Source of the DNA: Candidatus Levyibacteriota bacterium | Lineage (GTDB): Bacteria; Patescibacteriota; Microgenomatia; Levybacterales; UBA12049 | Assembly: GCA_043823085.1 (NCBI GenBank) | Contig: JBDRBE010000004.1 | Coordinates: 342,780 to 406,779, forward strand | Reading direction: 5' to 3' | Length of the DNA stretch: 64,000 bases | Shown here: piece after piece, positions 4,031 through 62,744 of the stretch | Position numbering within the stretch: the stretch's first letter is position 1 | How the letters are laid out: every line of letters starts with the position of its first letter | Made by a program: the position numbers and the translations under genes | The notes under the pieces: model-generated | The model's input: only the letters and a program-made list of their open reading frames with translations | Told to the model about the DNA's origin: nothing | Database searches by the model: none

Positions 4031-4081
4031 ATATCTTCCTATTCTATCATCTTGCCCTCAAAAATCAAGGGATACTAAATT

Positions 4082-4110
4082 AGCTTCGCAAGGCGACGCC
4101 TTGCGAAGCT
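4082..4110. repeat. 29-bp near-perfect palindrome AGCTTCGCAAGGCGACGCCTTGCGAAGCT. A second copy is inside folA at 62503-62531.
   Basis: Seen directly in the sequence. Intergenic, between the pepA start and tRNA-Leu. Confidence 0.6.
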
Positions 4111-4179
4111 AAAATTTGAATAGTGCCATCGAAGCCAATTAAAGTTAAAGCTTGTTATGTTATAATTATTCCAGTCTTA

Positions 4180-4265
4180 AGGGCAAGTGGCGGAACGGTA
4201 TACGCGTGAGTCTCAAAAACTCATGAGCTGAAAGGTTCATGTGGGTTCGAATCCCTCCTTGCCCA
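4180..4265 (+). tRNA. tRNA-Leu(CAA), type II with a long variable arm
   Basis: Acceptor GGGCAAG/CTTGCCC. D-arm GTGGCGGAACGGTATACGC is like bacterial tRNA-Leu. Anticodon stem TGAGT/ACTCA with loop CTCAAAA gives anticodon CAA. T-loop TTCGAAT. Discriminator A, with no encoded CCA. Confidence 0.8.
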
Positions 4266-4302: not shown

Positions 4303-5160
4303 ATGATCTGGCTTTTATTTGCATTTTTAACAGCCCTTTTTGAGTCCTTAAAGGATATCTTAAGCAAACACAATCTCAAAAAGATTGACGAATATTCCGC
4401 TTCTTTGGCTTTCCGTTTATCTTTTGTTTTTCTCCTGCCATATTTATTATTTTCGAAAATCCCAACCCTCAATAATCTTTTTTTTATCGCTTTAATTTTT
4501 GCTGTTCCAATAAATATTGCAACCGCAATTCTTTATATGAAAGCGTTAAAGAATTCAGATGTATCATTGAGCATCCCCCTTACAGCTTTTACGCCTTTGT
4601 TTCTTTTAATCACTTCCCCTTTGATTATTCACGAATTTCCTTCTTTTTTAGGCCTTTTGGGGGTGCTTTTAATAGTTTTTGGTTCATATCTTCTAAACCT
4701 CCAAGAAAGACATAAAGGATTTTTTGTTCCTTTTAAGGCCTTACTTAAAGAGAAAGGCCCTCGCTTTATGCTCCTTGTCGCTTTTTTGTGGAGTATCGGT
4801 TCAAACTTCGATAAAATCGGAGTTTTAAATTCCTCCCCTATTTTTTGGGTCATTGCCGTAAATTTCTGCTCAACTTTAATTTTAATTCCAATTGTTTTCA
4901 AAAGAAATAAAAATGCTGCAATAACTCTTCCCAAAAACTTAAGTCTTCTCACAATAAGTCTTGCTAGCGCTTTAAGTTTGGCTTTCCAAATGACTGCAAT
5001 ATCCCTGGCTCTTGTCTCTTATGTTATTTCTATAAAAAGAACAAGTATCCTAATAACCATTATTTTAGGAGCGCTAGTATTTAGAGAAAAAGGCTTGAAA
5101 GAAAGATTAATTGGAGGCATAATAATGATTGCAGGCATCATTTTAATCGCATTTTCATAA
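4303..5160 (+). CDS. EamA/DMT family transporter
   Basis: 285 aa with about 10 TM helices and two EamA-like halves. Confidence 0.65.
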   Translation: MIWLLFAFLTALFESLKDILSKHNLKKIDEYSASLAFRLSFVFLLPYLLFSKIPTLNNLFFIALIFAVPINIATAILYMKALKNSDVSLSIPLTAFTPLFLLITSPLIIHEFPSFLGLLGVLLIVFGSYLLNLQERHKGFFVPFKALLKEKGPRFMLLVAFLWSIGSNFDKIGVLNSSPIFWVIAVNFCSTLILIPIVFKRNKNAAITLPKNLSLLTISLASALSLAFQMTAISLALVSYVISIKRTSILITIILGALVFREKGLKERLIGGIIMIAGIILIAFS

Positions 5161-5289
5161 GGTGACCAAGCTAGTTCACCTTAGAGGTGGTCTAGATAGG
5201 CCACCTCGCTCCTACTCCATCCCCTGCATTATTAAAATTTCTGTTGAAAGCAACAAAAAATATTTCGATTGGCTAAAAGGTCAAATTTC

Positions 5290-5880: not shown

Positions 5881-6003
5881 ACCCCCTAACCATTTAGAAT
5901 TTTTGAAGTTGGATATCTTTGACATATTTGATCTTGAATATTTGAATAATTGACATCTTTATATCTAGAATTCAAGAAAATCACACTTCTAATCTCAAGA
6001 ATT
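5881..6003. repeat. partial copy of the palindromic intergenic element family (TCAAGA/GATATC/TCTAGA words, ..AATCACACTTCTAATCTCAAGAATTCTAAT terminus)
   Basis: Shares terminus and word composition with the elements at 42151, 43544, 48677 and 62074. Lacks the CAGCTG core. Confidence 0.45.
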
Positions 6004-7323
6004 CTAATCACTCTCTCTCTTTTTTTCGACACTATAAAATCTTATTCTATCTCCCCTAAAAAGTAAATCGATTTCGCCTGTTGGTCCGTTTCGATGCTTG
6101 GCAATTAAAAGTTTCATCGGCATTGTTTTTCCGTATTCTTCTTCGGTTCTATACAAAAACATCACCACGTCCGCGTCTTGTTCAATAGCTCCACTTTCCC
6201 GAAGATCCGCAAGCTGCGGTTTCCTCTCTCCCCTGTGCTCAACAGCACGCGAAAGTTGGGAAACTGCCAGAACCGGAACTTTAAGTTCTCTTGCCAAATT
6301 TTTTAAAGATTGGGAAACAATTGAAACTTCCTGAACCCGGTTGTCATAACGTCTCCCCGGATCTGCCAACTGTAAATAGTCAACGATAATCAATTTTATT
6401 TTATGCTCTAGCTGAAGTCTTCTTGCTTTAGAACGCATATCCGAAACAGAAAGTCCCGGCGTATCGTCAATAAAAATTGGCGCATCTGCAAGCTGTCCCA
6501 TGGCTTCTGACAAATTGCTAAAATCGCTTTCTGAAAGTTTTCCGGTTTTTAATCTCCAGGAATCAACATCTGCCTGATTAACCAAAAGTCTATCCACAAC
6601 TTCCTCCTTGCTCATTTCAAGGGAAAAAAATCCAACCGGAATTTTCTCATTAACGCCTATAAATTGTGCGATATTTACTGCCAGCGCTGTTTTTCCCTGT
6701 CCGGGACGAGCCGCCAAAATTATCAAATTTGACTCCTGAAGTCCGGAAAGCATATTATCTAAATCCATGAAACCTGTTTTTATACCGCGGAACCCCGCTC
6801 CCTTTTTATGCAGTTCATCAATTCTGTCAAAACTCTCGGCTAAAGCCTCACGAATTGGAATAAACCCTTTTGAAATTTGCCATTGAGAAAGAGAAAAAAT
6901 TGATGACTCGGCTTTATTGAGAATATCTTTTACTTCCTCTTCGCTGAAACCAAGTTCCGAAATTTCGTTGCCTGCCTTTATTAATGACCTTTTTAGAGAT
7001 GCTTCTTTTATAAGAAGAGCGTAGTGTTCAACATTTGCCGCGGTCGGAACTTTATTAATAAGATCGCTGATAAAAGACGCTTCGATTTTTTTGTCCATTT
7101 TTTCTTTTTTGAGTCTTGAGGTTAATGTAAGAATATCGATTGGTTTTTTATCTTCATATAAAGTTAGCATCACATTGTAAATAATGGCGTTTATGTCGTT
7201 ATAAAAATCTTTTGGAGAAATAATTTCGGAAACAATACTTATTGCATCTTTATCAATAAGAATTGCGCCCAAAACGCTTTCTTCTGCCTCGTCATTATGT
7301 GGAAGGATGCGTGAAACTACCAT
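6004..7323 (-). CDS. dnaB: replicative DNA helicase DnaB
   Basis: 439 aa. N-terminal DnaB domain (LPHNDEAEESVLGAIL). Walker A GARPGQGKT. RecA-like C-terminal domain. Confidence 0.9.
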   Translation of the reverse strand: MVVSRILPHNDEAEESVLGAILIDKDAISIVSEIISPKDFYNDINAIIYNVMLTLYEDKKPIDILTLTSRLKKEKMDKKIEASFISDLINKVPTAANVEHYALLIKEASLKRSLIKAGNEISELGFSEEEVKDILNKAESSIFSLSQWQISKGFIPIREALAESFDRIDELHKKGAGFRGIKTGFMDLDNMLSGLQESNLIILAARPGQGKTALAVNIAQFIGVNEKIPVGFFSLEMSKEEVVDRLLVNQADVDSWRLKTGKLSESDFSNLSEAMGQLADAPIFIDDTPGLSVSDMRSKARRLQLEHKIKLIIVDYLQLADPGRRYDNRVQEVSIVSQSLKNLARELKVPVLAVSQLSRAVEHRGERKPQLADLRESGAIEQDADVVMFLYRTEEEYGKTMPMKLLIAKHRNGPTGEIDLLFRGDRIRFYSVEKKRESD

Positions 7324-11135: not shown

Positions 11136-11148
11136 CTCACCCGAAAAT

Positions 11149-11177
11149 TTGACAAGGAAAGTTTCTGTGGTATAAAC
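11149..11177 (+). promoter_or_regulatory. promoter TTGACA-N16-TGgTATAAA upstream of the RAYT gene. A near-identical copy sits at 11904-11931.
   Basis: ttgacaaggaaagtttctgtggtataaa compared with ttgacaaggaaaacttttgtggtatgat. Confidence 0.45.
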
Positions 11178-11184
11178 AACTATC

Positions 11185-11203
11185 ACACCCCCGAGGTGTA
11201 ACA
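11185..11203. repeat. REP-like hairpin (ACACCCCCGAGGTGTAACA), upstream flank of the RAYT gene
   Basis: Inverted repeat stem with a CCCGAGG loop. Same family as 11881-11902 and 33841-33877. Confidence 0.55.
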
Positions 11204-11212
11204 AGTACCATA

Positions 11213-11878
11213 ATGTGCTATTATTTAATTATGCCTTATCGAACAACTCCACTTGTTAATAACGGTCTTTATCATATATATAACCGTGGCGTGGAAAAAA
11301 GACAAATCTTTATGAAAGACCGAGATTATCAAAGATTTCTCCAAACTCTCTACTATTATCAGTTTAGCGGTCCTAAAGCTCGTTTTTCTACGCATAAGAA
11401 ATTCAAAAATAAAAATTTTGATAAAAATCCTAAAATCGTGGAAATTATCTGTTACTGTTTAATGCCAAACCATTTTCATTTATTACTGAAACAATTAAAG
11501 GATAATGGCATTCAGGAATTTTTGAGTAAAGTAGCAAATAGTTATGCAAAATATTTCAATACTAAGTACAAACGAGTTGGTCCACTTTTACAAGGTCAAT
11601 TCAAAGCGGTAACTGTAGAAACCGATGAACAATTAGTCCATTTATCAAGATACATACACCTAAATCCATTCACAGCTGAAATTACAAAAGATTGGGAGAA
11701 CTTTCCCTACTCTTCCATTCAAGAGTTTATTGAGGATACAACTTCCAAAATTTGCGCCATTGAACAAATTTTAAATTTATTTACAAATCAAGCAGGATAT
11801 AGATCGTTTATTTCCGATAACCAATCATACGCTTTGGAACTTAGTAAAATCCAACATCTTTTAATAGACGAAGAATAA
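11213..11878 (+). mobile_element. REP-associated tyrosine transposase (RAYT; IS200/IS605 TnpA-like Y1 HUH transposase)
   Basis: HUH motif in CYCLMPNHFHLLL. Conserved YHIYNRG, SYAKYFN, RVGPLLQGQFKA and the catalytic Tyr region RYIHLNP. Flanked on both sides by REP hairpins. Confidence 0.75.
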
Positions 11879-11880
11879 TT

Positions 11881-11902
11881 GTTACACTCCCGAGGTGTAA
11901 CA
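11881..11902. repeat. REP-like hairpin GTTACAC-TCCCGAG-GTGTAAC, downstream flank of the RAYT gene
   Basis: Perfect 7-bp stem. Followed by a duplicated TTGACA..TATGAT promoter. Confidence 0.6.
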
Positions 11903-11926
11903 GTTGACAAGGAAAACTTTTGTGGT

Positions 11927-12400
11927 ATGATACCTAGCATGCCATTTGCTCCTGTAGAAATAGCAACCATAAACCTTGCTAACGAGCTCCGTGAAGGAGA
12001 TAAATTGCGTGATGCAAAAAAAATAAGAGATGAACATGATAGCGCATGGAAGACTCTTGGCGGAAAATTTGGAATCGCTGTTACCGACGAACAAATGGTT
12101 AATGTATTAAAAGCAACGCTCAACATGTTGCGATTTGGTTTAGAACGAGGACTTGGTAGCCCTCCTTCCGAAAAAACTATCGAAGAATTAGAAAAGGCGC
12201 AGGATCTTAGTACCACAAAAGGAAGACAAGCTGCAAATGCGTTTTTTGAACGATTAGCAGGAATTTATGCATATAAAAAATATCCTCCTCTTGACCCAAT
12301 TGAGAACGAAAGAAAATGCATAGCATGTGAAATCGCAGCAATTTCTTTACGCAAACCTAGAGAATTTGACAAACCGCCTGTTTTAAAGTATACTCCTTAA
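11927..12400 (+). CDS. hypothetical protein
   Basis: The ORF track begins inside the REP/promoter. The likely start is MIPSMPF at 11927, after the duplicated promoter. Confidence 0.4.
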   Translation: MIPSMPFAPVEIATINLANELREGDKLRDAKKIRDEHDSAWKTLGGKFGIAVTDEQMVNVLKATLNMLRFGLERGLGSPPSEKTIEELEKAQDLSTTKGRQAANAFFERLAGIYAYKKYPPLDPIENERKCIACEIAAISLRKPREFDKPPVLKYTP

Positions 12401-21630: not shown

Positions 21631-21650
21631 AGTTAACGCTTTTAGAAAGC

Positions 21651-21805
21651 GCGGGAAGGCACAAAATTTTCGCAGTTCGCATTTCGAGCTAACAACTTTT
21701 GATACGAATTTTTAAAACCCCCAGAGTATTATTTTGCTTTGAATTAAATCAAAACTGTTGCGAGCTGCGGAACAAGAAAACTTTTGTGCCGACCTCAGCG
21801 CGACA
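21651..21805. mobile_element. MITE-like element with terminal inverted repeats GGCACAAAATTTTCGCAGTTCGCA / TGCGAGCTGCGGAACAAGAAAACTTTTGTGCCGAC
   Basis: Terminal inverted repeats are reverse complements of each other. Full copies at 36031-36190 and 48401-48525. Solo arms at 2380-2412, 45935-45990 and 58291-58340. Confidence 0.6.
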
Positions 21806-23306: not shown

Positions 23307-23795
23307 TTAGAAAGGAATATCGTCTGGAGACACCTCTTCTTCCGGCTCTGCAGATTCAACCTTGGCTTTTTCTTCTTTTTTAGCGCTGACTTTTTTAGAC
23401 TCTTTCTTTTCTTCCGCTGGTTCTTTTGAAACTTCACTGCTTCTTGCCTCTTCTCCTACTCTTTTGGAGTCAAGCAGAAGCATATCGTCAATAACTACTT
23501 CCGTAATAGTTTTTTGCGTACCGTCCTGTGCTTGCCAGGATCTTGTCGAAAGCCTTCCCTCAACATAAACTTTTCGCCCCTTTACTAAAAATTGACTGCA
23601 AATCTCTGCTAATTTATTCCAGGAAACAATTCTGTGAAATTCCGTGTCTTCTTTTTTTTCGCCGGTATCTGTCGTCCAACTTCTATTGGTTGCAATACCG
23701 AAAGAACAAACTGCTGTTCCGTTTGCCGTATAGCGCAACTCCGGATCGCGGGTCATATTCCCAATCAACTGTACTCTATTTAAACTTCGTGCCAT
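23307..23795 (-). CDS. ssb: single-stranded DNA-binding protein
   Basis: OB-fold N-terminus MARSLNRVQLIGNMTRDPELRYT. Acidic tail ending DDIPF. The upstream extension is translated repeat sequence. Confidence 0.85.
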   Translation of the reverse strand: MARSLNRVQLIGNMTRDPELRYTANGTAVCSFGIATNRSWTTDTGEKKEDTEFHRIVSWNKLAEICSQFLVKGRKVYVEGRLSTRSWQAQDGTQKTITEVVIDDMLLLDSKRVGEEARSSEVSKEPAEEKKESKKVSAKKEEKAKVESAEPEEEVSPDDIPF

Positions 23796-23955
23796 ATCCT
23801 TTTGGATTTCTTGACGTTGGATATTCTTGATATTCTTGACCTTGACGTTTTTGACTTTTTGATATCTTGAAATCAAGAATTCAATTCTTCAATTCGTCAG
23901 CTGACGAATCAAGATCAAAAATATCGCACTTCCAACTTCTAGATATCTAATTTCA
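23796..23955. repeat. palindromic intergenic element (TTCGTCAGCTGACGAA core flanked by TTGAAGTCTTGATATCTTGA words)
   Basis: Family copy between rpsF and ssb. Confidence 0.6.
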
Positions 23956-24231
23956 CTATTTTTTCCTAATCAATAACGACCTTAAAACTCCTTCTTGATT
24001 CAAAATTTTCTTTTCAAAATCCTGCGGGATTGAATCTCCTTCTAGCGATAAGTGATAATAAAATCCGCTTTTTTCTCTTTTTATCGGATAGCTCAAAACT
24101 TTCTCGCCCCATTCTTCTTCCTTTGTAACTTTTATTTTCCCAAGCCAGGATTTTATTGTTTCAAGTAGTTTTTTTCGGGCGTTTTCGGCCATTGAACTGT
24201 TAAAAATCACGGCTAAATTGTATGTTCGCAT
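23956..24231 (-). CDS. rpsF: ribosomal protein S6
   Basis: MRTYNLAVIF..YYHLSLEG. Operon order rpsF-ssb-rpsR is canonical. Confidence 0.85.
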   Translation of the reverse strand: MRTYNLAVIFNSSMAENARKKLLETIKSWLGKIKVTKEEEWGEKVLSYPIKREKSGFYYHLSLEGDSIPQDFEKKILNQEGVLRSLLIRKK

Positions 24232-24460: not shown

Positions 24461-25705
24461 ATGAGGCGTTTCTCAAGAGCTCAAATTTTAGCTATTATTA
24501 CCACCATTATCATTGTTGGAGCTATTCCTCTCACCGTCTTTCTCGCCCGCCAACAGCAGGAAATAAGACAAAGAGCCTCCGGAAGAGAAAATGCACACTG
24601 CAACACTGGTGATACTAATTTTCCAGGCGGATATGATTATGTTGCCGGCGGACTTGATACTTATGTCCTTGCTTCTAATGGCGCTTGCAACGAAACAGGC
24701 GCAATTCCAGGAGTCCTTGTGCATGCCGAAGCCCTTCATAATGGTCCATGCGATAGAAACAATGAAGCAAATGATTTTCCTGGTTGTACAACTAGAGAGT
24801 TCATTCCACGGACGGAAATTGATGGGGAAGGATGCGGAATGAGTGGGAATGGCAGAACTGATATACATGGAGAAACCTATCTTTTTCCTCTTAATTGCGG
24901 GCACAATAATTTTCGAATCTCCGTTATAATTTCCCCAGATTATAAATTTACAGGATGGAATATTAACGGCGGGACATGTAGCACCACTGAATTAAGTCAG
25001 GCAGAAATAGAAGTACTAAATGGCGGCGATAAAATTTTGAGAATTTTTTATCAGCCGCCGACTGCACCAACTCCAACTCCTCCAACAGCAACTGCCACCG
25101 TCACTCCTCCAACAGCAACTGCCACCCCAACAAAAACCCCTACTCCAACGCCGACTGGAGTCCTCCCAACAGCGACTCCAACGAAAACTCCTACTCCTCC
25201 AACAACTGCAACTGTGACGCCGCCGGTTTATCCAACTCCCGAACCTTTCTATGTCTCTTTCGTCTGTAACAATTGTCAAGCAGCCCAAGTTCCGACTGCA
25301 ACGCCAACGCCTACAATAGCTGTAACTTCGCCCTCTTACTATCCACCGCTACCTCCAGCTACAGCTTGGCCGAGTGCCACACGTGTTCCAACAGTAACTC
25401 GTACTCCAACGCCAACACCGACGCGCACGCCAACACCGACGCCAACTCGTGGTCCAACGCCAACACCGACGCGCACGCCAACACCCGGCCCGACCGGCAC
25501 GCCAAGGCCGTCTTACTTTGTTGTAATTACAACAAAACCAACAATAGTTATAACAAGTAAAGTTGGCGGCCCAACTCAAGCTGCTCAAGGAGGAAGTCCT
25601 GCGCCAACTCTGCCGCCGACAGGAAGCATTAGTACACCTGTTGCCATAGGAATTGGCGGAATTATCTCTGTTATAATAGGAAGTATTATTTTCTTATTGT
25701 TATAA
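24461..25705 (+). CDS. cell-surface protein with an LPXTG-type sorting signal (LPPTGS plus a hydrophobic tail), a Cys-rich domain and a long Thr/Pro linker
   Basis: N-terminal signal anchor. PTATPTPTPPTATATV repeats. C-terminus TLPPTGSISTPVAIGIGGIISVIIGSIIFLLL. Confidence 0.6.
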   Translation: MRRFSRAQILAIITTIIIVGAIPLTVFLARQQQEIRQRASGRENAHCNTGDTNFPGGYDYVAGGLDTYVLASNGACNETGAIPGVLVHAEALHNGPCDRNNEANDFPGCTTREFIPRTEIDGEGCGMSGNGRTDIHGETYLFPLNCGHNNFRISVIISPDYKFTGWNINGGTCSTTELSQAEIEVLNGGDKILRIFYQPPTAPTPTPPTATATVTPPTATATPTKTPTPTPTGVLPTATPTKTPTPPTTATVTPPVYPTPEPFYVSFVCNNCQAAQVPTATPTPTIAVTSPSYYPPLPPATAWPSATRVPTVTRTPTPTPTRTPTPTPTRGPTPTPTRTPTPGPTGTPRPSYFVVITTKPTIVITSKVGGPTQAAQGGSPAPTLPPTGSISTPVAIGIGGIISVIIGSIIFLLL

Positions 25706-33840: not shown

Positions 33841-33877
33841 TTGTTACACCTCTTGTTACACCTCGGGGGTGTAACAA
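33841..33877. repeat. REP-like hairpin TTGTTACACC-TCGGGGG-GTGTAACAA, with a partial extra half-copy
   Basis: Inverted orientation relative to the copies flanking the RAYT gene. Intergenic, between the fabZ-like gene and cysS. Confidence 0.6.
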
Positions 33878-36030: not shown

Positions 36031-36190
36031 TGCGAGGAGGCATAAAATTTTCGCCGTTCGCATTTTGAGCTTAACATAAAAAGAACCGATTGAAAAGAGA
36101 CCTAATGAACAAATTAAGTAATTTTTAAAGAATGACTGTTGCGAACTGCGGAACAAGAAAACTTTTGTGCCGACTTCAGCAAAAATCTAG
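36031..36190. mobile_element. MITE-like element, second full copy (GGCATAAAATTTTCGCCGTTCGCATT ... GCGAACTGCGGAACAAGAAAACTTTTGTGCCGAC)
   Basis: Same terminal inverted repeats as 21651-21805. Confidence 0.6.
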
Positions 36191-41521: not shown

Positions 41522-42150
41522 TACTCACTCCTTCCTTCCATGGCGCGTTGGAGAGTTAATTCGTCGGCGTATTCAATATCTGAACCGGTGGGCAGTCCCC
41601 TGCCAATTCGTGTTATTGTTAATTGTTGATTGTTGATTGTTGATTGTTGGCGAAGTTGCTTCGCCAAGTACATCGCCGTCGCCTCCCCTTCCATGGTCGG
41701 ATTCGTCGCCAGTATTATCTCGCGGACTAATGCTGAACTCGAACGCGGAACCGCGCCGACTCGCTCTAGCAGTTGGTGAATATAAATTTCATCCGGGCCG
41801 ATATTGTTGAGCGGATCAATCCTCCCATGGAGGACATGATAAACGCCGTTATACCTGCCGTTTTTTTCCAGCGCCAAAACATCCAAGGGCTCTTCAACCA
41901 CACAAATAGTTGAATCATCTCTTTTCTCATCAGAACAAATATTACAGGGGTCTTGCTCCCCTATCATAAAACATTTCGAACATAAGACCGTATCTTTTTT
42001 CAAATTGATAATAGATGAAGAAAATCTATCCAGTTCACCTTGAGGAACATGCAGTAAATAAAATGTTAGCCTCTGCGCTGTTTTTGGCCCAATTCCCGGC
42101 AGTCTTTCAAAGGACTCAATCAAATTCGCAATTGCTTTTGGGACTCTCAT
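41518..42150 (-). CDS. recR: recombination protein RecR, carrying an in-frame heptamer-repeat insertion
   Basis: HhH segment GIGPKTAQRL. C4 zinc finger CSKCFMIGEQDPCNIC. Toprim domain. (ATTGTTG)x5 at 41615-41649 encodes QQSTINNQQLT. Confidence 0.85.
   Translation of the reverse strand: MRVPKAIANLIESFERLPGIGPKTAQRLTFYLLHVPQGELDRFSSSIINLKKDTVLCSKCFMIGEQDPCNICSDEKRDDSTICVVEEPLDVLALEKNGRYNGVYHVLHGRIDPLNNIGPDEIYIHQLLERVGAVPRSSSALVREIILATNPTMEGEATAMYLAKQLRQQSTINNQQLTITRIGRGLPTGSDIEYADELTLQRAMEGRSEY
41615..41649. repeat. ATTGTTG heptamer tandem repeat (x5) inside the recR coding sequence
   Basis: Seen directly in the sequence. The same repeat is inside proS at 49581-49615. Confidence 0.7.
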
Positions 42151-42295
42151 ATTGGAATTCTTGAAGTCAGATTTCCTTGACGTTTTTGATCTTGATTCGT
42201 CAGCTGACGAATTGAAGTCTTGAAGTCTTGATATCTAGAAATCAAATTATCAAGAAATCAAGTTCAAGAAAATCCCACTTCTATCTTCAATGATT
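42151..42295. repeat. palindromic intergenic element (CAGCTG core, TCAAGAAAATCCCACTTCT terminus)
   Basis: Between recR and prs. Confidence 0.6.
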
Positions 42296-43255
42296 CTATT
42301 TTTTTATTTCTTCGGCGATAATATCAGCGACTGTTAGAATTTGCAGTTTGGGAAATCTTTTTTCTCTTGGACAATAAACCGTATCTGTCACAAAAAATTT
42401 CTTCACTGCCGATTTTTGCAAAATTTTTGGCGCACTCTTTGAAAATACTGAATGCGTCACAAAAACATAAACTTCCTTTATCCCCAATTTTCGGAGAAGT
42501 TTTGTCGCGGTAATTATTGTTCCTCCAGATGAAATCATATCATCAACAATAAACGCCCTTTTAATTTGCTTTAAACTGATATTTTCCAAACCCTCAATTT
42601 TATCTGCTGTCACTTGTCCGGTTTCCAAATTTCTGCTTTTGACAATCGCGCCAAAAAACATATCATTTAACATTTGCGAAAGCAATTTTATCCGTCTTAA
42701 TCCTCCCATATCCGGTGAAATCAAAAGGCTCTGCGAATTATTCCATTTATTTTTTTTAATTGTTTTGGCAAAAAGAGAAAGCGCAGAAAGATGAATAATC
42801 GGCATATGAAAAAGCTCGGGAATTTTAATAGAGTGGAGGTCAAAACAGATAAGTTTATCCATCCCCATCGCTTCTAAAGTTTTGATAATAACTTCCAAAG
42901 ACACCGCCTCGCCTGTTCTAAAAAGATGATCCTGCCTTTGATAACCAAGATACGGAATAACAGCGGTAATTGATTTTGCGCCGCTTCTTCTTAGAGCATC
43001 GACAATAAAAAAAAGCTCCATGTAATTTTGGTCAACAGGCGTACAGCAACTTTGCAAAACAACGCATTTTTGGTCTAAAACTTTGTCAATAATTCGAACG
43101 CGTTTTTCGCCGTCCGGGAAGATATATATTTCCAGAGGTGTTGGACTTGTGCTTAATTTACCTGCGAGTTTTTTTCCAAGTGTCTTACTGGAACTACCGC
43201 TTATAATCTTCACAACAGTTATTGTACTATGTGTCGAAAAAAAATCAATAAGCAA
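42296..43255 (-). CDS. prs: ribose-phosphate pyrophosphokinase
   Basis: PRPP synthetase motifs (DLHS, VDDMISSGGTI). Confidence 0.9.
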   Translation of the reverse strand: MLIDFFSTHSTITVVKIISGSSSKTLGKKLAGKLSTSPTPLEIYIFPDGEKRVRIIDKVLDQKCVVLQSCCTPVDQNYMELFFIVDALRRSGAKSITAVIPYLGYQRQDHLFRTGEAVSLEVIIKTLEAMGMDKLICFDLHSIKIPELFHMPIIHLSALSLFAKTIKKNKWNNSQSLLISPDMGGLRRIKLLSQMLNDMFFGAIVKSRNLETGQVTADKIEGLENISLKQIKRAFIVDDMISSGGTIITATKLLRKLGIKEVYVFVTHSVFSKSAPKILQKSAVKKFFVTDTVYCPREKRFPKLQILTVADIIAEEIKK

Positions 43256-43543: not shown

Positions 43544-43704
43544 CCCCTACTGTTTAGATTTCTTGACGTGAGATATTTTTGATATTCTTGATCTTGATTC
43601 GTCAGCTGACGAATTGAAGTCTTGAAATCTTGATATCTTGAGTTCAAGAAATCAAAAATTCAAGTTCAAGAAAATCCCACTTCTCACTTCAAAAATTCTA
43701 ATTA
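43544..43704. repeat. palindromic intergenic element, the fullest copy (TTGACGTGAGATA ... TTCGTCAGCTGACGAA ... GTTCAAGAAAATCCCACTTCTCACTTCAA)
   Basis: Between ybaB and dnaX. Confidence 0.6.
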
Positions 43705-45249
43705 CTATTTCTGTTTTAGTGAAATTGAAACGTCGATTGGGCTTCCTATAATTTGTTTACAAACCTTTTCTATAATATCACGAGTTTTTCTTTCTTCCAA
43801 GCGCTCTTTATGAAACTTATATCCGGCTTCTATGGCAAGATTTTTCCCGTCAAAACTTTTTAAAGTACATCCTCTTAGAACTCCTGCCACCGAATGATTG
43901 TAGGGCTTGACCAAATCAATAAGCTGTTTTAGGACATTTTTTTCGTCAAATATTCCGGGTTGATTAATCGCAGGATTCGATAACACTTCTTCTTTCTCCA
44001 CCTTTTTGTCGCGGAAAGACGCAGAACCGGACGCCAAACTACGCTGACTTTGAACATCTTGGTTTTGATTATTAGTTTCGCGTTTTTCTGCATTTTGTTC
44101 CGCATTCTTCTGCGCCTGTATTCCCCACTCCACAATTGCAATTTCAAGCGGCAATTGCGGCAGGACCGCATATTTTATTTCTCCATACGCCTTTGCCAAA
44201 ATTTCAATCAAAGACTTAATTTCATTAAGTTCTAAATTATAAGTTACAAGTCCTAAGTTATTTTCTACACCGACTTTTGATAATAAATTTAAATGCAGTT
44301 GGGAAATCATTTCTGATATAAAATATTTAACATCTATCCCCTCTTTTGTAATTCTTGATACCAATTCTAAGCTTTTTTTAGTGTCTTTTTTAGAAAGATA
44401 GTCCAACATCTTTGATACTTGATACTTGATACTTGATACTTGATATTTCTCCTCCACCAATTCTTTGGTAATCTTTTTTTTATTGGACATTAAAACAAGT
44501 TCTTCTAAGATTTTTACACCGTCGCGAAAACTGCCGTCGGACAATGAGGCAATATATTTTAGTTCTTCTTTTTCTATTGGAATATTTTCCTCTTTGGCAA
44601 TCCGCGAGAATGAACGCAGAAGTTCTTCTTGGGTCGCTCTCTTAAAAGAAATATGAAAACAACGCGAAAGGATAGTCGCCGGAACTTTTTGCGGTTCCGT
44701 GGTACAAAGAATAAAAACAGCATGACTCGGCGGCTCTTCTAAAGTTTTTAAAAGCGCATTAAAAGCTTCTGTGGTCAACATGTGAACTTCATCAATAATG
44801 TAAACTTTTTTAGAAGCCAGAGCAGGCGAAAGCCGTATTTTCTCACGCAAATCTCTTATCTCATCAATCCCTCTATTTGATGCTCCGTCTATTTCCAAAA
44901 CATCTAAATTTGTGCCATTAGTAATAGATTTACATTGCAAGCATTTATTACAAGGCTCAATACTAGCATCTAGCGTATACCTGCCTGCCGGCAAGGCAGG
45001 GCGTTTAGCGTTTAGTTTTTTTTCTTTTGAACTAGACACTAATTTATTAGACGCTAGACGCTCGCAATTGAGGATTTTTGCGACAATTCTGGCGGTTGAA
45101 GTTTTTCCAAGTCCTTTAGGTCCGGTAAAAAGAAAAGCGTGTTGTTCTGATTTTTGATCGCCGGAAAAAACAGCGGTTAATTTTTCTCTAATTTCTTGAC
45201 TATCAAGATCTTTAATTTTTTGCGGCCGATATTTTCGATAATAAACCAT
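43705..45249 (-). CDS. dnaX: DNA polymerase III subunit gamma/tau, carrying two in-frame repeat insertions
   Basis: AAA+ Walker A GPKGLGKTS and sensor motifs. (CTTGATA)x5 at 44410-44447 encodes SIKYQVSSIKYQVS. An ACGCTA-word block at 45001-45070 lies inside the Zn module, between NCE and EPCNKCLQC. Confidence 0.85.
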   Translation of the reverse strand: MVYYRKYRPQKIKDLDSQEIREKLTAVFSGDQKSEQHAFLFTGPKGLGKTSTARIVAKILNCERLASNKLVSSSKEKKLNAKRPALPAGRYTLDASIEPCNKCLQCKSITNGTNLDVLEIDGASNRGIDEIRDLREKIRLSPALASKKVYIIDEVHMLTTEAFNALLKTLEEPPSHAVFILCTTEPQKVPATILSRCFHISFKRATQEELLRSFSRIAKEENIPIEKEELKYIASLSDGSFRDGVKILEELVLMSNKKKITKELVEEKYQVSSIKYQVSKMLDYLSKKDTKKSLELVSRITKEGIDVKYFISEMISQLHLNLLSKVGVENNLGLVTYNLELNEIKSLIEILAKAYGEIKYAVLPQLPLEIAIVEWGIQAQKNAEQNAEKRETNNQNQDVQSQRSLASGSASFRDKKVEKEEVLSNPAINQPGIFDEKNVLKQLIDLVKPYNHSVAGVLRGCTLKSFDGKNLAIEAGYKFHKERLEERKTRDIIEKVCKQIIGSPIDVSISLKQK

Positions 45250-47608: not shown

Positions 47609-48676
47609 TTATATTTTTTCTAAAACTTGAATAATCTGTTTTAAAGTTAATCTTGATGCTCTCATTTTTGGGTTTTTGGCACTGCCGTTTAGAAGCATTT
47701 TCTTTGATACGTGCAAAAACCACGATGCTTGCGGATCCATTTTTTTGAATTTTTCATAAACCAAAGTCAGATCTGCTCCTTTTTCTCCGCTGACACTGGG
47801 CCGCGCTTTTATCCTTACATATCCTTTTCTCGGATCGCGTCTTACAACTATTGCATACCCCATTTTTTGCGCCAATTTTATAACCGAGTCATTAACTGTC
47901 TCAACACCCAAACCTTTCCCCCATCTTGTCTTAAACTCAATTCCTTTCTCGGCGATTTCTTTTTCGGCCCAAACTCTGTTTTCAAAATCATGTAAAATTG
48001 CATCAAGGCACTGCGAAATAAAATCAACATAAAAATTATCATCATTTGGCTTTTCAAGTTTCAACCCGTCTAAAATTCCTAAAATTGCAAAATCATGATA
48101 AAAAGCCGTAGGATTTTCCCACAAAGCTTCTCTAAAATGATCAATATCTGTCACAACCTTTACAATTCTACCTATGGCTTCGCTCTTGTCTTTCATTCTC
48201 TCGCTCTCCGAACTTTGAACTTTGCCCTGAACTTGTCGGATGGATGAATTTTGAACTTTCTTGATGTAGTCCCAAACCAAACTGGATGCGCTGATGCTTT
48301 CATCGGAAGTTAAATGATGGTCCAAAGGTCCAAGTCCAGTATCAACATGAATCATTTCGTTGTCATCAATCTTCTCGATAGCATCTAAAGAAGAATTTTT
48401 GCCGCGGGGAGGCACAAAATTTTCGCTGTTCGCATCTTGTCGAGCGCCAATGCGTTGATGAACGCCTTGAGACTCATCGCGAGACAACTGCGGAACAAGA
48501 AAATTTTCGTGCCGACCTAAGCGGCTCAAACCCTCTTTTCCTCTCACTCGCAACCTTTCTCCCGATAAAACAAATCTCACTTCTGCATTTTCCCATCCTG
48601 CTAAAAATCTTTTTGTCAACCAAACCGAGCAAATCGCATCTAAATCAGGAGAAGTATGGGTAACAACAATTTTCAT
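47609..48676 (-). CDS. DHH family phosphoesterase (NrnA-like) carrying an in-frame MITE insertion
   Basis: DHH motif I HTSPDLDAICS and the DHH motif in VDTGLGPLDHH. A 125-nt MITE copy at 48401-48525 is translated between them. A GAACTTTG-repeat insert lies at about 48181-48260. Confidence 0.6.
   Translation of the reverse strand: MKIVVTHTSPDLDAICSVWLTKRFLAGWENAEVRFVLSGERLRVRGKEGLSRLGRHENFLVPQLSRDESQGVHQRIGARQDANSENFVPPRGKNSSLDAIEKIDDNEMIHVDTGLGPLDHHLTSDESISASSLVWDYIKKVQNSSIRQVQGKVQSSESERMKDKSEAIGRIVKVVTDIDHFREALWENPTAFYHDFAILGILDGLKLEKPNDDNFYVDFISQCLDAILHDFENRVWAEKEIAEKGIEFKTRWGKGLGVETVNDSVIKLAQKMGYAIVVRRDPRKGYVRIKARPSVSGEKGADLTLVYEKFKKMDPQASWFLHVSKKMLLNGSAKNPKMRASRLTLKQIIQVLEKI
48401..48525. 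mobile_element. MITE-like element copy inside the DHH phosphoesterase reading frame
   Basis: GGCACAAAATTTTCGCTGTTCGCAT ... CTGCGGAACAAGAAAATTTTCGTGCCGAC. 125 nt, which is about 42 codons with no stop. Confidence 0.6.
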
Positions 48677-48897
48677 ATACTGTAAGTATACAAAAAATTC
48701 AAACTCTTGACAAACTTTTAAAAATGTTACAATATATTATTATACCGAATTTTTGAGGTGGGAAGTGGGATTTTCTTGAACTTGATTTCTTGATAATTTG
48801 ATTTCTAGATATCAAGATTTCAAGACTTCAATTCGTCAGCTGACGAATCAAGATCGAAGACGTCAAGGATATCTAACTTCAAGAATTCCAAATAATT
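48677..48897. repeat. palindromic intergenic element plus overlapping divergent promoters
   Basis: GGTGGGAAGTGGGATTTTCTTGAACTTGA ... TTCGTCAGCTGACGAA. TTGACA on the plus strand at 48706. On the minus strand, TTGTCA-N17-TATACT-N6-ATG serves the DHH gene. Confidence 0.55.
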
Positions 48898-49371
48898 ATG
48901 GACCCGAAAACTGCCCAATTAGATCCTAAACTGAAAGAAGCCTACGAACGCGTTATGGGCACAGCCGTTCCCAAAACGCAAACTCCCCAAGCTCCTCAAA
49001 CTCCCCAACCTCTAACGCCAGTGAAGGAGGCCTCCATTCCTACGGCTAATACCAAAGGAGTTATCATACCCCCTGTCCAAAATCCTTCAGTTGCGCCCGT
49101 TGCTCCAAATACTCCAACACCAGGAATTATTACTAATTCGGGAATAACAACTCCTTCTGTTAAAACTCCGGTTTCTCCATCTATAAATAAAGGAACAAGT
49201 TTTAGCGCAACTGCTGGCAAAGGGGGGTCAGGAGGATTTCCCAGAATTTTAATTTTTCTTTTTCTGCTGATCTTTTTTGTAGGATACGGTATATTTTGGA
49301 TTAAATTCTTTAAACTCTCTGTCCCTTATCTTTCCGACCTTGTCATCCCCGGCCTTGGCAAAGTCTTTTAA
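48898..49371 (+). CDS. hypothetical Pro/Thr-rich protein with a C-terminal TM anchor
   Basis: 157 aa. PQTPQ repeats. C-terminus FPRILIFLFLLIFFVGYGIFWI. Confidence 0.4.
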   Translation: MDPKTAQLDPKLKEAYERVMGTAVPKTQTPQAPQTPQPLTPVKEASIPTANTKGVIIPPVQNPSVAPVAPNTPTPGIITNSGITTPSVKTPVSPSINKGTSFSATAGKGGSGGFPRILIFLFLLIFFVGYGIFWIKFFKLSVPYLSDLVIPGLGKVF

Positions 49372-60714: not shown

Positions 60715-62073
60715 TTATGCTACGGGGAATTTGGAGCAAAGGCTTTTGACTTCTTTATTGATTAAAATTAATTTTTTATTTTTAATAACATTTGTTCTAA
60801 ATTCTTTCCAAAACTGTCCTCTTTCTTCTTTGTTTTGCGGAATCTGCGAGTTTCCTACCTCTTGACAAATTTCATTTATCCATTTGGCGATTTTTACCAT
60901 TTCTCTCTCCTTCATCCCCCGCGTAGTTATGGCAGGTGTTCCCAAACGAATTCCCGAAGGGTAAAACGGAGGCATCGGGTCATTTGGAACAGCGTTTTTA
61001 TTAACAACTATTCCCGCAATTTCTAAAGCCAAAGCCGCAGCCGCACCATTAACATTTTTATTTTTTAAATCTATTAAAAGCAAATGATTTTCTGTTGTAC
61101 CGCTTATTAAATTAAATCCATATCTTGTAAGTTCATCTGCCAGCGTTTTTGCATTTTTAACAATCTGCGCGCCGTATCTTTTGAAAGATGTTAAACTTGC
61201 TTCATAAAGAGCAACGGCAATTGCGGCAGTTTGATTGTCATGCGGGCCTCCCTGCAATCCTGGAAAAACCGCTTTATTAATTTTTTCTCCAAGCTCGGGA
61301 TCTTTTTTTAGTCCTTTATCTGTAACCATTATCATCGCTCCTCTTGGACCTCTCAAAGTTTTATGTGTTGTCGTCATAACTATATGGGCATATGGGATAG
61401 GACTTGGATGAACGCCGGCAACAATAAGACCGGTAATATGGGAAATATCGGCAAGCAAATATGCTCCGACTTTATCGGCAATTTGTCCGAATCTTTTAAA
61501 ATTGATGATTCTAGGATAAGCTGTATAACCGCAGACAATAATTTTTGGCTTTTCTTTAACTGCCAATTTTTCAAGTTCATCATAATCCAACAAACCATCT
61601 TTACCAAGCTGATACTGAACTGTCTTAAAATATTTTCCCGAAAAAGAGACCGGCGCACCGTGAGTTAAATGCCCACCGAATGCCAGAGAAAGCCCCATAA
61701 TTTTATCCTTTAAAGGCTCTAAAAGCGCAAAGTAAATCGCTGTGTTGGCCGGAGAACCGGAATATGGCTGAACGTTTACATATGGAACGCCGAAAAGTTT
61801 TTTAGCCCTTTCTTGAGCCAAAATTTCTACTTCGTCGGCAAACTTTTGTCCTTGATAATAACGTTTTTTTGGATACCCTTCGGAATATTTATAGTTTAAA
61901 ACGCTACCCAATGCCTGAAGCATTGCTTTGCTTAAATGATTGTTCGATGGAATCATTTCTAATGTATTTTGAACTCGTTTTTCCTCGTCTTTGATAAGCT
62001 TGTAAATTTTGGGGTCGGTTTTTTGCAATGCTTTCACAAAATAGATAATACTAATAATTTTAAAAATAATCAA
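60715..62073 (-). CDS. glyA: serine hydroxymethyltransferase
   Basis: PLP motif VMTTTHKTLRGPRG and the overall SHMT sequence. Confidence 0.9.
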   Translation of the reverse strand: MIIFKIISIIYFVKALQKTDPKIYKLIKDEEKRVQNTLEMIPSNNHLSKAMLQALGSVLNYKYSEGYPKKRYYQGQKFADEVEILAQERAKKLFGVPYVNVQPYSGSPANTAIYFALLEPLKDKIMGLSLAFGGHLTHGAPVSFSGKYFKTVQYQLGKDGLLDYDELEKLAVKEKPKIIVCGYTAYPRIINFKRFGQIADKVGAYLLADISHITGLIVAGVHPSPIPYAHIVMTTTHKTLRGPRGAMIMVTDKGLKKDPELGEKINKAVFPGLQGGPHDNQTAAIAVALYEASLTSFKRYGAQIVKNAKTLADELTRYGFNLISGTTENHLLLIDLKNKNVNGAAAALALEIAGIVVNKNAVPNDPMPPFYPSGIRLGTPAITTRGMKEREMVKIAKWINEICQEVGNSQIPQNKEERGQFWKEFRTNVIKNKKLILINKEVKSLCSKFPVA

Positions 62074-62213
62074 GGGCTAGTTTTTAGAATCTTTGATGTG
62101 AGAAGTGGGATTTTCTTGAACTTGACCGTTTTGATATCTAGATATCTAGAATTCAAGAAATCGAAGATTCAAGATCAAAAATGTCAAAAATATCTCACGT
62201 CAAAAATTCTAGT
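62074..62213. repeat. palindromic intergenic element, a copy lacking the CAGCTG core
   Basis: Termini TAGAATCTTTGATGTGAGAAGTGGGATTTTCTTGAACTTGA and ATATCTCACGTCAAAAATTCTAG. Aligns with the reverse complement of the 43544 copy. Confidence 0.55.
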
Positions 62214-62744
62214 TCATCTCTCCAATTCCAAAAACTTATATTTATGTCCTTCCCACTTTCCTTCTTTTTCAAAAACTATTTTTTTGAATATTGATTCGTA
62301 TTCCGGGAAAAAAGTGTCGGCGTCTTTAACAGCATCTACAATTGTTAAATATAATTTATCCGTTAAACCAATCGCCTGCTGATAAATCTGTCCCCCCCCG
62401 ATAATAAATATTTCTTTTTTATTGTCATGCCAAACTTGTTTCGGCATCTCACGAGATTCTGAAGCCATTTTCAACGCTTCATCCAAAGAACTCGTAATTT
62501 TTAGCTTCGCAAGGCGTCGCCTTGCGAAGCTAGAATCTCGCGAAATAACTATGTTCGTCCTATTGGGAAGAGGATGGCCAATCGACTCGAAGGTTTTTCG
62601 CCCCATTATAATAGTATGGCCACATGTTTTTTCGCGAAACCGCTTCATATCTTCGGGGATTTGCCACAACAATTTATTATCGTTCCCAATTCCTCTGTCT
62701 TTTGAAATCGCTACGATGATGCTGATTTTTGAATTATGAATCAT
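62214..62744 (-). CDS. folA: dihydrofolate reductase, carrying an in-frame palindrome insertion
   Basis: DHFR motifs (IVAISKDRGIG, LLW, MGRKTFESIG). The 29-bp palindrome at 62503-62531 encodes SSFARRRLAKLKI. Confidence 0.8.
   Translation of the reverse strand: MIHNSKISIIVAISKDRGIGNDNKLLWQIPEDMKRFREKTCGHTIIMGRKTFESIGHPLPNRTNIVISRDSSFARRRLAKLKITSSLDEALKMASESREMPKQVWHDNKKEIFIIGGGQIYQQAIGLTDKLYLTIVDAVKDADTFFPEYESIFKKIVFEKEGKWEGHKYKFLELER
62503..62531. repeat. 29-bp palindrome AGCTTCGCAAGGCGTCGCCTTGCGAAGCT inside folA. Sister copy at 4082-4110.
   Basis: Seen directly in the sequence. GC-rich in an AT-rich gene. Confidence 0.6.

Follow-up and report, generated by a model that had tools for sequence, protein, structure and literature searches.

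A candidate minimal IS200-like element with a RAYT-like Y1 nuclease and a long target duplication in a Microgenomates genome

The segment at 11176-11903 (ca. 728 bp) of the window, by which the whole 64-kb stretch of DNA analysed here is meant, is interpreted as a minimal IS200-like element that encodes a RAYT-like Y1 nuclease and is bordered by a long target duplication. We estimate the probability of this reading at roughly 0.65. The host is a Candidatus Levyibacteriota MAG of the Microgenomates (CPR), where the clade of the element is widespread; the contig measures 431 kb, and the G+C content of the window is about 37%. The element, whose features are collected in Table 1, is probably mobile. 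With a decayed left arm in its left hairpin and only about 85% identity between the target copies, the insertion in the window would be old and may be immobile.

Table 1 Features of the candidate element, hairpins without a gene in the window, and direct repeats in the window and at related loci
Feature	Position	Strand	Length	Identity	Remarks
Left target copy X	11149..11175	+			sigma-70-like promoter, TTGACA-16-TATAAA with TG; positioned so that it could drive the Y1 gene
Linker	11176..11181	+			presumed left end of the element, by analogy (L001 6 nt, L039 26 nt, L054 0 nt)
Left hairpin H1, ATCACACCCCCGAGGTGTAAC	11182..11202	+			left arm decayed, two transitions relative to H2
Y1/HUH nuclease gene	11231..11878	+	215 aa		frame open from 11213; identified by profile, motifs and fold
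Right hairpin H2, GTTACACTCCCGAGGTGTAAC	11881..11901	+			same orientation as H1
Right target copy X'	11904..11931	+			TTGACA-16-TATGAT, extended -10; 7 nt before ATG 11939
Solo hairpin copy, GTTACACCCCCGAGGTGTAAC on the minus strand	33841..33877	-			in the gap separating the cysS stop from the following gene
Solo doublet of AGGTG/CACCT hairpins	5160..5206	+	47 nt		no adjoining Y1 gene
Direct repeat, window			25-27 bp	ca. 85-88%	promoter of the downstream gene
Direct repeat, L001			74 bp	96%	last 55 nt and stop codon of the upstream gene
Direct repeat, L039			78 bp	87%	first 58 nt and leader of the neighbouring gene
Direct repeat, L054			23 bp	91%	last codons of the upstream gene

The Y1 nuclease gene and its product

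The original prediction had ascribed a full Y1-transposase signature to the ORF at 11213-11878. This open frame of 221 aa on the forward strand was confirmed, and the motifs named at the time are present and invariant in 29 homologs. These are the YH.YNRG motif (Y14 to G20), the HUH motif N80-H81-F-H83 and the tyrosine motif SRY141-IHLNP, in which Y141 is the catalytic tyrosine. PNHFHLL, LFQGxFKA, YIHLNP and YSS are likewise each conserved among the 29 aligned homologs. Translation probably starts at ATG 11231 to give a product of 215 aa, because nearly all homologs have this length and begin with MPYR. The NCBI call for the gene (188 aa) is too short and removes the conserved first strand. 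The family is large, with more than 8000 database relatives and 60-80% identity for the top matches; a second copy of the gene was not found within the 64-kb window.

The product passed the profile check for Pfam Y1_Tnp (PF01797) with 31.3 bits against a gathering score of 23, while the NCBIfam equivalog REP_Tyr_transpos (NF047646) gave 48.4 bits, below its cut-off of 80. Y1_Tnp is the only domain returned by Pfam at E up to 0.1, with no C-terminal HTH (Bac_DnaA_C, HTH_23 or HTH_28), and the last 60 C-terminal residues are predicted to be helical in the AlphaFold model. The AF2 model (pLDDT 80.9) has TnpA_REP (4ER8) as its closest fold in the PDB, with E 8e-6 and a TM-score of 0.65 on the target; IS608, ISDra2 and IS200 transposases follow at lower rank (2A6M and 2XM3 among the matches). 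A comparison of the family profile with PDB sequences provided a similar picture, E. coli TnpA_REP (4ER8) being the top match at E 0.012 and ISDra2 TnpA the next, and the identity between the Y1 protein and E. coli TnpA_REP amounts to 15%. The enzyme is a Y1/HUH nuclease, and it is assigned to the RAYT-like branch because its tyrosine motif has the form Y---NP and its best fold match is 4ER8. The earlier identification as a RAYT is thus upheld for the Y1/HUH core, the Y---NP motif and the TnpA_REP fold, and fails on the NCBIfam score and on the missing GT[AG]G foot (see below).

Hairpins flanking the gene

The hairpin pattern matches the window three times versus 0.07 matches expected (0/100 shuffles). 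Two of these matches flank the gene, as had been predicted. H2 reads GTTACAC-TCCCGAG-GTGTAAC, with perfect 7-nt arms and a folding energy of -6.5 kcal/mol (z -4.0). H1 reads ATCACAC-CCCCGAG-GTGTAAC; with two mismatches in its left arm it is weak on its own (-3.8 kcal/mol, z -1.7) and on either strand, and it represents a hybrid of the two arm variants found in close homologs. The loops of H1 and H2 point the same way, i.e. the copies are direct and not inverted. The hairpins read (T)GTTACACC.../TATCACACC..., so that the GT[AG]G foot is absent in either form, GTAG or GTGG. An integron attC-like site was considered and rejected, as the arms do not match RYYYAAC/GTTRRRY, and an Rfam scan of the window returned one tRNA and nothing else.

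Palindromes across the family

The sample comprised 80 related metagenome loci, with further ones added by exact-protein look-up. For the 71 loci with both flanks, 150 nt on each side of the gene were searched for an exact shared stretch of at least 12 nt. Such a stretch occurs upstream and downstream of the gene at 57 of the 71 loci, versus 9 of 1116 control windows taken from the same loci. The shared stretch is a palindrome whose sequence is particular to each locus, while the core CACCT-N3-AGGTG (CACCY-N3-AGGTG) is kept. The flanking hairpins are cognate sites of the Y1 family, since the same arrangement, specific in sequence to each locus, recurs so widely. Among 51 aligned hairpins 89.4% of the cells are paired against 70.8% in shuffles, and double changes were counted in 99 cells against 37.8 (0/500 shuffles as high), with the caveat that these hairpins were chosen for being palindromic and that the independent evidence is the match between the upstream and downstream flanks.

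Hairpin and protein diverge together. The two distances correlate with rho 0.18 (as high in 21 of 2000 Mantel permutations), and the mean number of hairpin differences rises from 2.4 of 21 positions at more than 70% protein identity to 8.5 at less than 45%. Close homologs (72-80% identity) have one palindrome 10-13 nt ahead of the start codon (31 nt in L095) and a second 1-16 nt past the stop codon, and both copies are direct in all cases. Their arms come in two variants, TATCACACC/GGTGTGATA and TGTTACACC/GGTGTAACA, which are two compensated pairs apart and between which hybrids exist. At distant loci the flanking hairpins are inverted in about half of the cases. Distant members carry an additional inner inverted half-site after the left hairpin, TTGACACCTNGG, which doubles as a -35 box, and another, CCNAGGTGTC, before the right hairpin. 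Tandem duplications of a half-arm recur as well, in L097 compared with L096 of one population, downstream of the L092 gene, and at 33843 in the window.

Palindrome mismatches were compared as a guide to the strand of action. G.T and A.C mismatches are about equally frequent (26 vs 23), and there is no strand bias that would point to either strand as the one that folds. The palindromes are near-perfect right up to the centre, which together with the lacking strand bias fits a dimer on double-stranded DNA equally well as hairpin recognition.

Direct repeats at related loci and an empty site

Clear duplications that abut the hairpins are present at 4 of 71 loci, namely the window, L001, L039 and L054, with lengths of 23-78 bp. 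The duplicated DNA differs in kind between these loci (Table 1); what they have in common is therefore the insertion rather than a promoter. At the tight right junction, H2 is separated from the repeat by 1-2 nt, and the left junction is looser at 0-26 nt.

The orphan gene downstream of the element in the window, starting at ATG 11939, matches nothing but itself, and for this reason the search for an empty site was moved to L001. The ORF upstream of the L001 element, which ends in NWWIVN followed by the stop codon, is the ortholog (55-57% identity) of a large protein in L102 and L100, where that protein lies directly upstream of the ortholog of a TPR protein. The two genes on either side of the L001 element are next to each other in L102, with a spacer of 72 nt. 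L102 therefore represents an empty site, and the L001 insertion has its empty-site counterpart in this relative. The neighbours of the Y1 gene vary even among close homologs (72-80% identity) and include an NTP_transferase, a 423-aa protein and a cupin; in the window they are an HTH-like protein and the orphan.

The empty site in L102, the fresh-looking duplications at four loci and the exchange of neighbours among 72-80% identical homologs, joined by the solo hairpins and the in-frame murB doublet described below, which point to hairpin movement, all oppose a reading as a domesticated RAYT-like gene that is passed on vertically in single copy and performs a host function. On that reading the palindromes would be an operator and a terminator serving autoregulation, and the whole unit would be immobile. 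We consider it unlikely, although it accommodates the single gene copy in the window and the very large, well conserved family (>8000 matches, 60-80% identity among the top ones), as well as the overlap of TTGACACCTNGG with the -35 box of the gene's own promoter at many distant loci and the lack of a target duplication at 67 of 71 loci. It also agrees with the description of RAYT groups as housekeeping-like by Bertels et al. 2017 (PMC5581495).

Hairpins without a gene and other repeats in the window

The third hairpin match was found at 33855-33875 with its loop inverted, in line with the inverted third copy that had been predicted. On the minus strand it is adjoined by a tandem copy of the right half-arm, AAGAGGTGTAAC, at 33843-33855, and this copy supplies a Shine-Dalgarno-like GAGGTG located 6 nt before ATG 33840. 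Immediately downstream of a stop codon lies the doublet at 5160-5206 (-13.9 kcal/mol, z -5.2); it belongs to the kind seen beside remoter members of the family (L040, L037). The window's own 18-mer is present as an inverted doublet inside murB of a Daviesbacteria MAG (L082), in frame, at a position that corresponds to a gap of 7-9 residues in solved MurB structures. Scanning a genome-contig collection, one without the source genome, for ACACNCCCGAGGTGTAAC returned 10 matches.

Dispersed extra hairpins are rare, with one in 64 kb and four in about 324 kb (window and loci together), i.e. approximately one per 80 kb. The abundant repeats of the window are of a different nature: one family has six copies of about 150 nt with CTTGAnnT units phased every 8 nt, and the other three copies of an inverted-arm element of about 150 nt. 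The CACCT..AGGTG core was not found in either of these families, and no link between them and the hairpin emerged, as they have nothing in common. The notion that the RAYT generated the repeat load of the window is not supported, and the REP character once attributed to the hairpins is not borne out by the direct orientation of the flanking copies and the scarcity of further ones. A classical RAYT/REP system, in which the gene disperses REP or REPIN sequences in high copy and so explains the repeat load, is for these reasons, and given the missing GT[AG]G foot and the sub-threshold NCBIfam score, regarded as quite improbable, notwithstanding the Y---NP motif with its TnpA_REP fold, the excess of hairpin copies over expectation and the REPIN-like doublet in murB.

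The repeated promoter-like sequence in the window

The promoter-like sequence that had been noted on both sides of the gene was recovered at 11149-11176 (X) and 11904-11931 (X'), which are identical at 23 of 28 positions. A 25-mer of the repeat is 88% identical to 11904-11928, and with 3 mismatches allowed these are the only two matches in the window (0 expected). X' is near-consensus, with a promoter score of 11/12 and an extended -10 TG. X ends 5-6 nt before H1, and X' begins 2 nt after H2.

A duplication of the target is the most likely reading of the repeated promoter, because L001, L039 and L054 share the architecture and there duplicate gene ends, not promoters; the same suggestion in the original prediction gains weight from these loci and from the empty-site counterpart of L001. 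A REP-mediated tandem duplication as the source of the repeat was rejected, since there are no outer hairpins beyond the duplicated segments in either the window or L001. Two independent strong consensus promoters would account for the TTGACA and TGnTATRAT elements in both copies, and are nonetheless highly improbable in view of the non-consensus spacer common to both (AGGAAA..TT.TGTGG), the lack of any other copy in 64 kb at 3 mismatches, the abutment of both copies on hairpins (5-6 nt and 2 nt) and the same geometry with non-promoter DNA in L001, L039 and L054.

Proposed mechanism of insertion

By analogy with TnpA_REP and IS608 TnpA, the protein would bind the folded palindromes on single-stranded DNA, and would cut and rejoin the DNA beside them. 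This reaction could move the unit of gene and hairpins, and may occasionally have moved hairpins alone, candidates being the solo hairpin at 33855, the 5160 doublet and the one that lies in frame within Daviesbacteria murB. In the window, the insertion would have duplicated about 27 bp that carry the promoter of the orphan gene downstream. Of the two promoter copies, the upstream one may then transcribe the Y1 gene from a start located roughly at H1, and the downstream one would continue to drive the host gene.

The long and variable duplications do not fit the peel-and-paste model, because peel-and-paste leaves no duplication. They may stem from nicks placed far apart on opposite strands or from a template switch during replication. 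That a CPR-wide clade of HUH/Y1 transposons inserts with long target duplications of variable length (23-78 bp) is a tentative proposal, which we hold to be somewhat doubtful.

Significance

No branch of the Y1 nucleases is larger or less understood than the Group 1 RAYTs (subclass 2.1, TIRYT). The present data describe a very large CPR clade (>8000 relatives) whose genes have a clear cognate palindrome on either side, a hairpin partner of a kind that the literature does not report for Group 1 RAYTs, and they provide evidence that members have inserted recently, a relative having retained the empty site. If the clade does insert with such long duplications, this would imply a different insertion pathway, for instance independent nicking of each strand at distant sites or a template switch at the replication fork, and would link the 'domesticated' Group 1 RAYTs to an ancestor state that is still mobile. 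Should the interpretation hold, the clade would lend itself to studying how RAYT-like enzymes mobilise DNA, and one source of duplicated promoters and gene ends and of in-frame insertions in streamlined CPR genomes would be explained.

Comparison with known systems

The element is not a canonical RAYT/REP system, because the protein falls below the NCBIfam cut-off, the GTAG foot is missing, the hairpins are direct and dispersed copies are rare in the roughly 324 kb covered. With E. coli TnpA_REP and its REPtron (4ER8) it shares the HUH motif, the single tyrosine in Y---NP and the position of the gene between cognate palindromes; it differs by the low protein identity (15%) and by lacking the GTAG guide tetranucleotide. 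Moreover, the REPs that flank the E. coli gene are inverted pairs with hundreds of copies, whereas the hairpins of the window element are direct and rare. To our knowledge, TnpA_REP does not mobilise its own gene.

The resemblance to the IS200/IS605 elements (IS200, IS608, ISDra2) comprises the size of about 0.7 kb, the single Y1 gene between subterminal hairpins on the same strand, and the asymmetric ends with a tight right and a looser left junction. Conversely, the tyrosine motif is Y---NP instead of Y---Q and the protein has 215 aa instead of about 150. IS200/IS605 elements insert without target duplication, unlike the window element and those of L001, L039 and L054 with their repeats of 23-78 bp, and we know of no characterised Y1 transposase that leaves one. 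Insertion with long direct repeats of variable length, from tens to hundreds of bp, is known to us only for some DDE elements such as those of the IS1634/IS1549 type; their DDE transposases are unrelated, and they have terminal inverted repeats and do not rely on hairpin recognition.

Among the described groups of TnpA_Y1, the Y---NP tyrosine motif corresponds to class 2 of Quentin et al. 2018 (PMC6006769), who equated their subclass 2.1 with the Group 1 RAYTs (PMC5581495) and with TIRYT/TIRtron (PMC3733652). No REP-like structures were found adjoining subclass 2.1 genes (PMC6006769), and TIRtrons have inverted repeats with GGGGWSAS, some TIRs being described as self-complementary (PMC3733652). 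The clade analysed here instead has a full palindrome on each side (CACCT-N3-AGGTG), often in direct orientation, and the closest resemblance of its flanks to GGGGWSAS is GGGGTGTA or GAGGTGTC. A further difference from subclass 2.1 is that Pfam detected no C-terminal HTH/DnaA_C domain in the window protein. The papers on subclass 2.1 do not cover CPR hosts and do not report long target duplications, and our literature search found nothing relevant on RAYT or IS200 in Patescibacteria. Still, the motif signature of subclass 2.1, which consists of NH[YF]H, FQ, Y[IV]HLNP and a tail SS (PMC6006769, Table 1), is matched by NH[F]H, FQ, YIHLNP and SS in the window protein, a likeness drawn from motif comparison with that table. 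The element further resembles subclass 2.1 in a protein of slightly more than 200 aa, in its low copy number, with one gene in 64 kb, and in flanking repeats of modest abundance that differ from GTAG REPs.

Repeats of the window

The six-copy repeat of about 150 nt is unrelated to the Y1 hairpin. It is built from CTTGAnnT/TTGAnnTC units with 8-nt phasing, and several of its copies carry the palindrome ATTCGTCAGCTGACGAAT at the centre and a conserved tail, TTCAAGAAAATCCCACTTC. The three-copy element has inverted arms (GGCACAAAATTTTCGC ... GCGGAACAAGAAAACTTTTGTGCC) and resembles either a MITE or some structured RNA; the similarity of its arm motif AAGAAAACTTTTGTG to the spacer of the duplicated promoter is probably due to chance. 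The two copies of the G+C-rich palindrome are 97% complementary, and a tRNA gene (4181-4265) adjoins one of them. Furthermore, ORF 24461-25705 contains a Thr/Pro-rich tandem coding repeat of ACN-CCN units at 25111-25509, where G+C is locally elevated, at 0.44.

Repeat families of the window other than the Y1 hairpin
Feature	Coordinates	Strand
Intergenic repeat, ~150 nt	5885-6030, 23795-23970, 42145-42310, 43548-43712	+
Intergenic repeat, ~150 nt	48740-48900, 62070-62220	-
Inverted-arm element, ~150 nt, 3 copies	21650-21799, 36031-36180, 48403-48522	
G+C-rich perfect palindrome TAGCTTCGCAAGGCG(A/T)CGCCTTGCGAAGCTA, 2 copies	4081-4117, 62496-62532	

The Y1 gene and an intergenic site in related loci

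The public annotation of 11231-11878 (P0001) comprises 188 aa and starts at Met34, whereby the conserved YHIYNRG strand is cut off; homologs indicate a length of 215 aa. Among related metagenome loci, one intergenic site was found in three states: empty in L102, occupied by the Y1 element in L001, and occupied by a gene for a 118-aa protein of the 23S_rRNA_IVP family in L100/L101 (2524-2880). The presence of both the Y1 element and the 23S_rRNA_IVP-family gene at this site suggests an insertion hot spot.

Hairpin arms and doublets

One hairpin arm (12-13 nt) has repeatedly been duplicated in tandem, as seen at 33843-33855, in locus L097 versus L096, and downstream of the L092 gene, and this duplication is polymorphic inside one population. 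The extra arm at 33843-33855 supplies the Shine-Dalgarno-like GAGGTG of gene 33840-33373. A solo AGGTG/CACCT hairpin doublet is located at 5160-5206, its first base being the final stop-codon base of ORF 4303-5160. The doublet is of the type flanking distant Y1-family members, and no second Y1 gene was found within the window. In a Daviesbacteria MAG (JACPDA010000004.1, locus L082, 1733-1776), the hairpin of the window occurs as an inverted doublet in frame within murB, encoding ...THPRGEEMRLHLGGV..., at a position that corresponds to a gap of 7-9 residues in solved MurB proteins.
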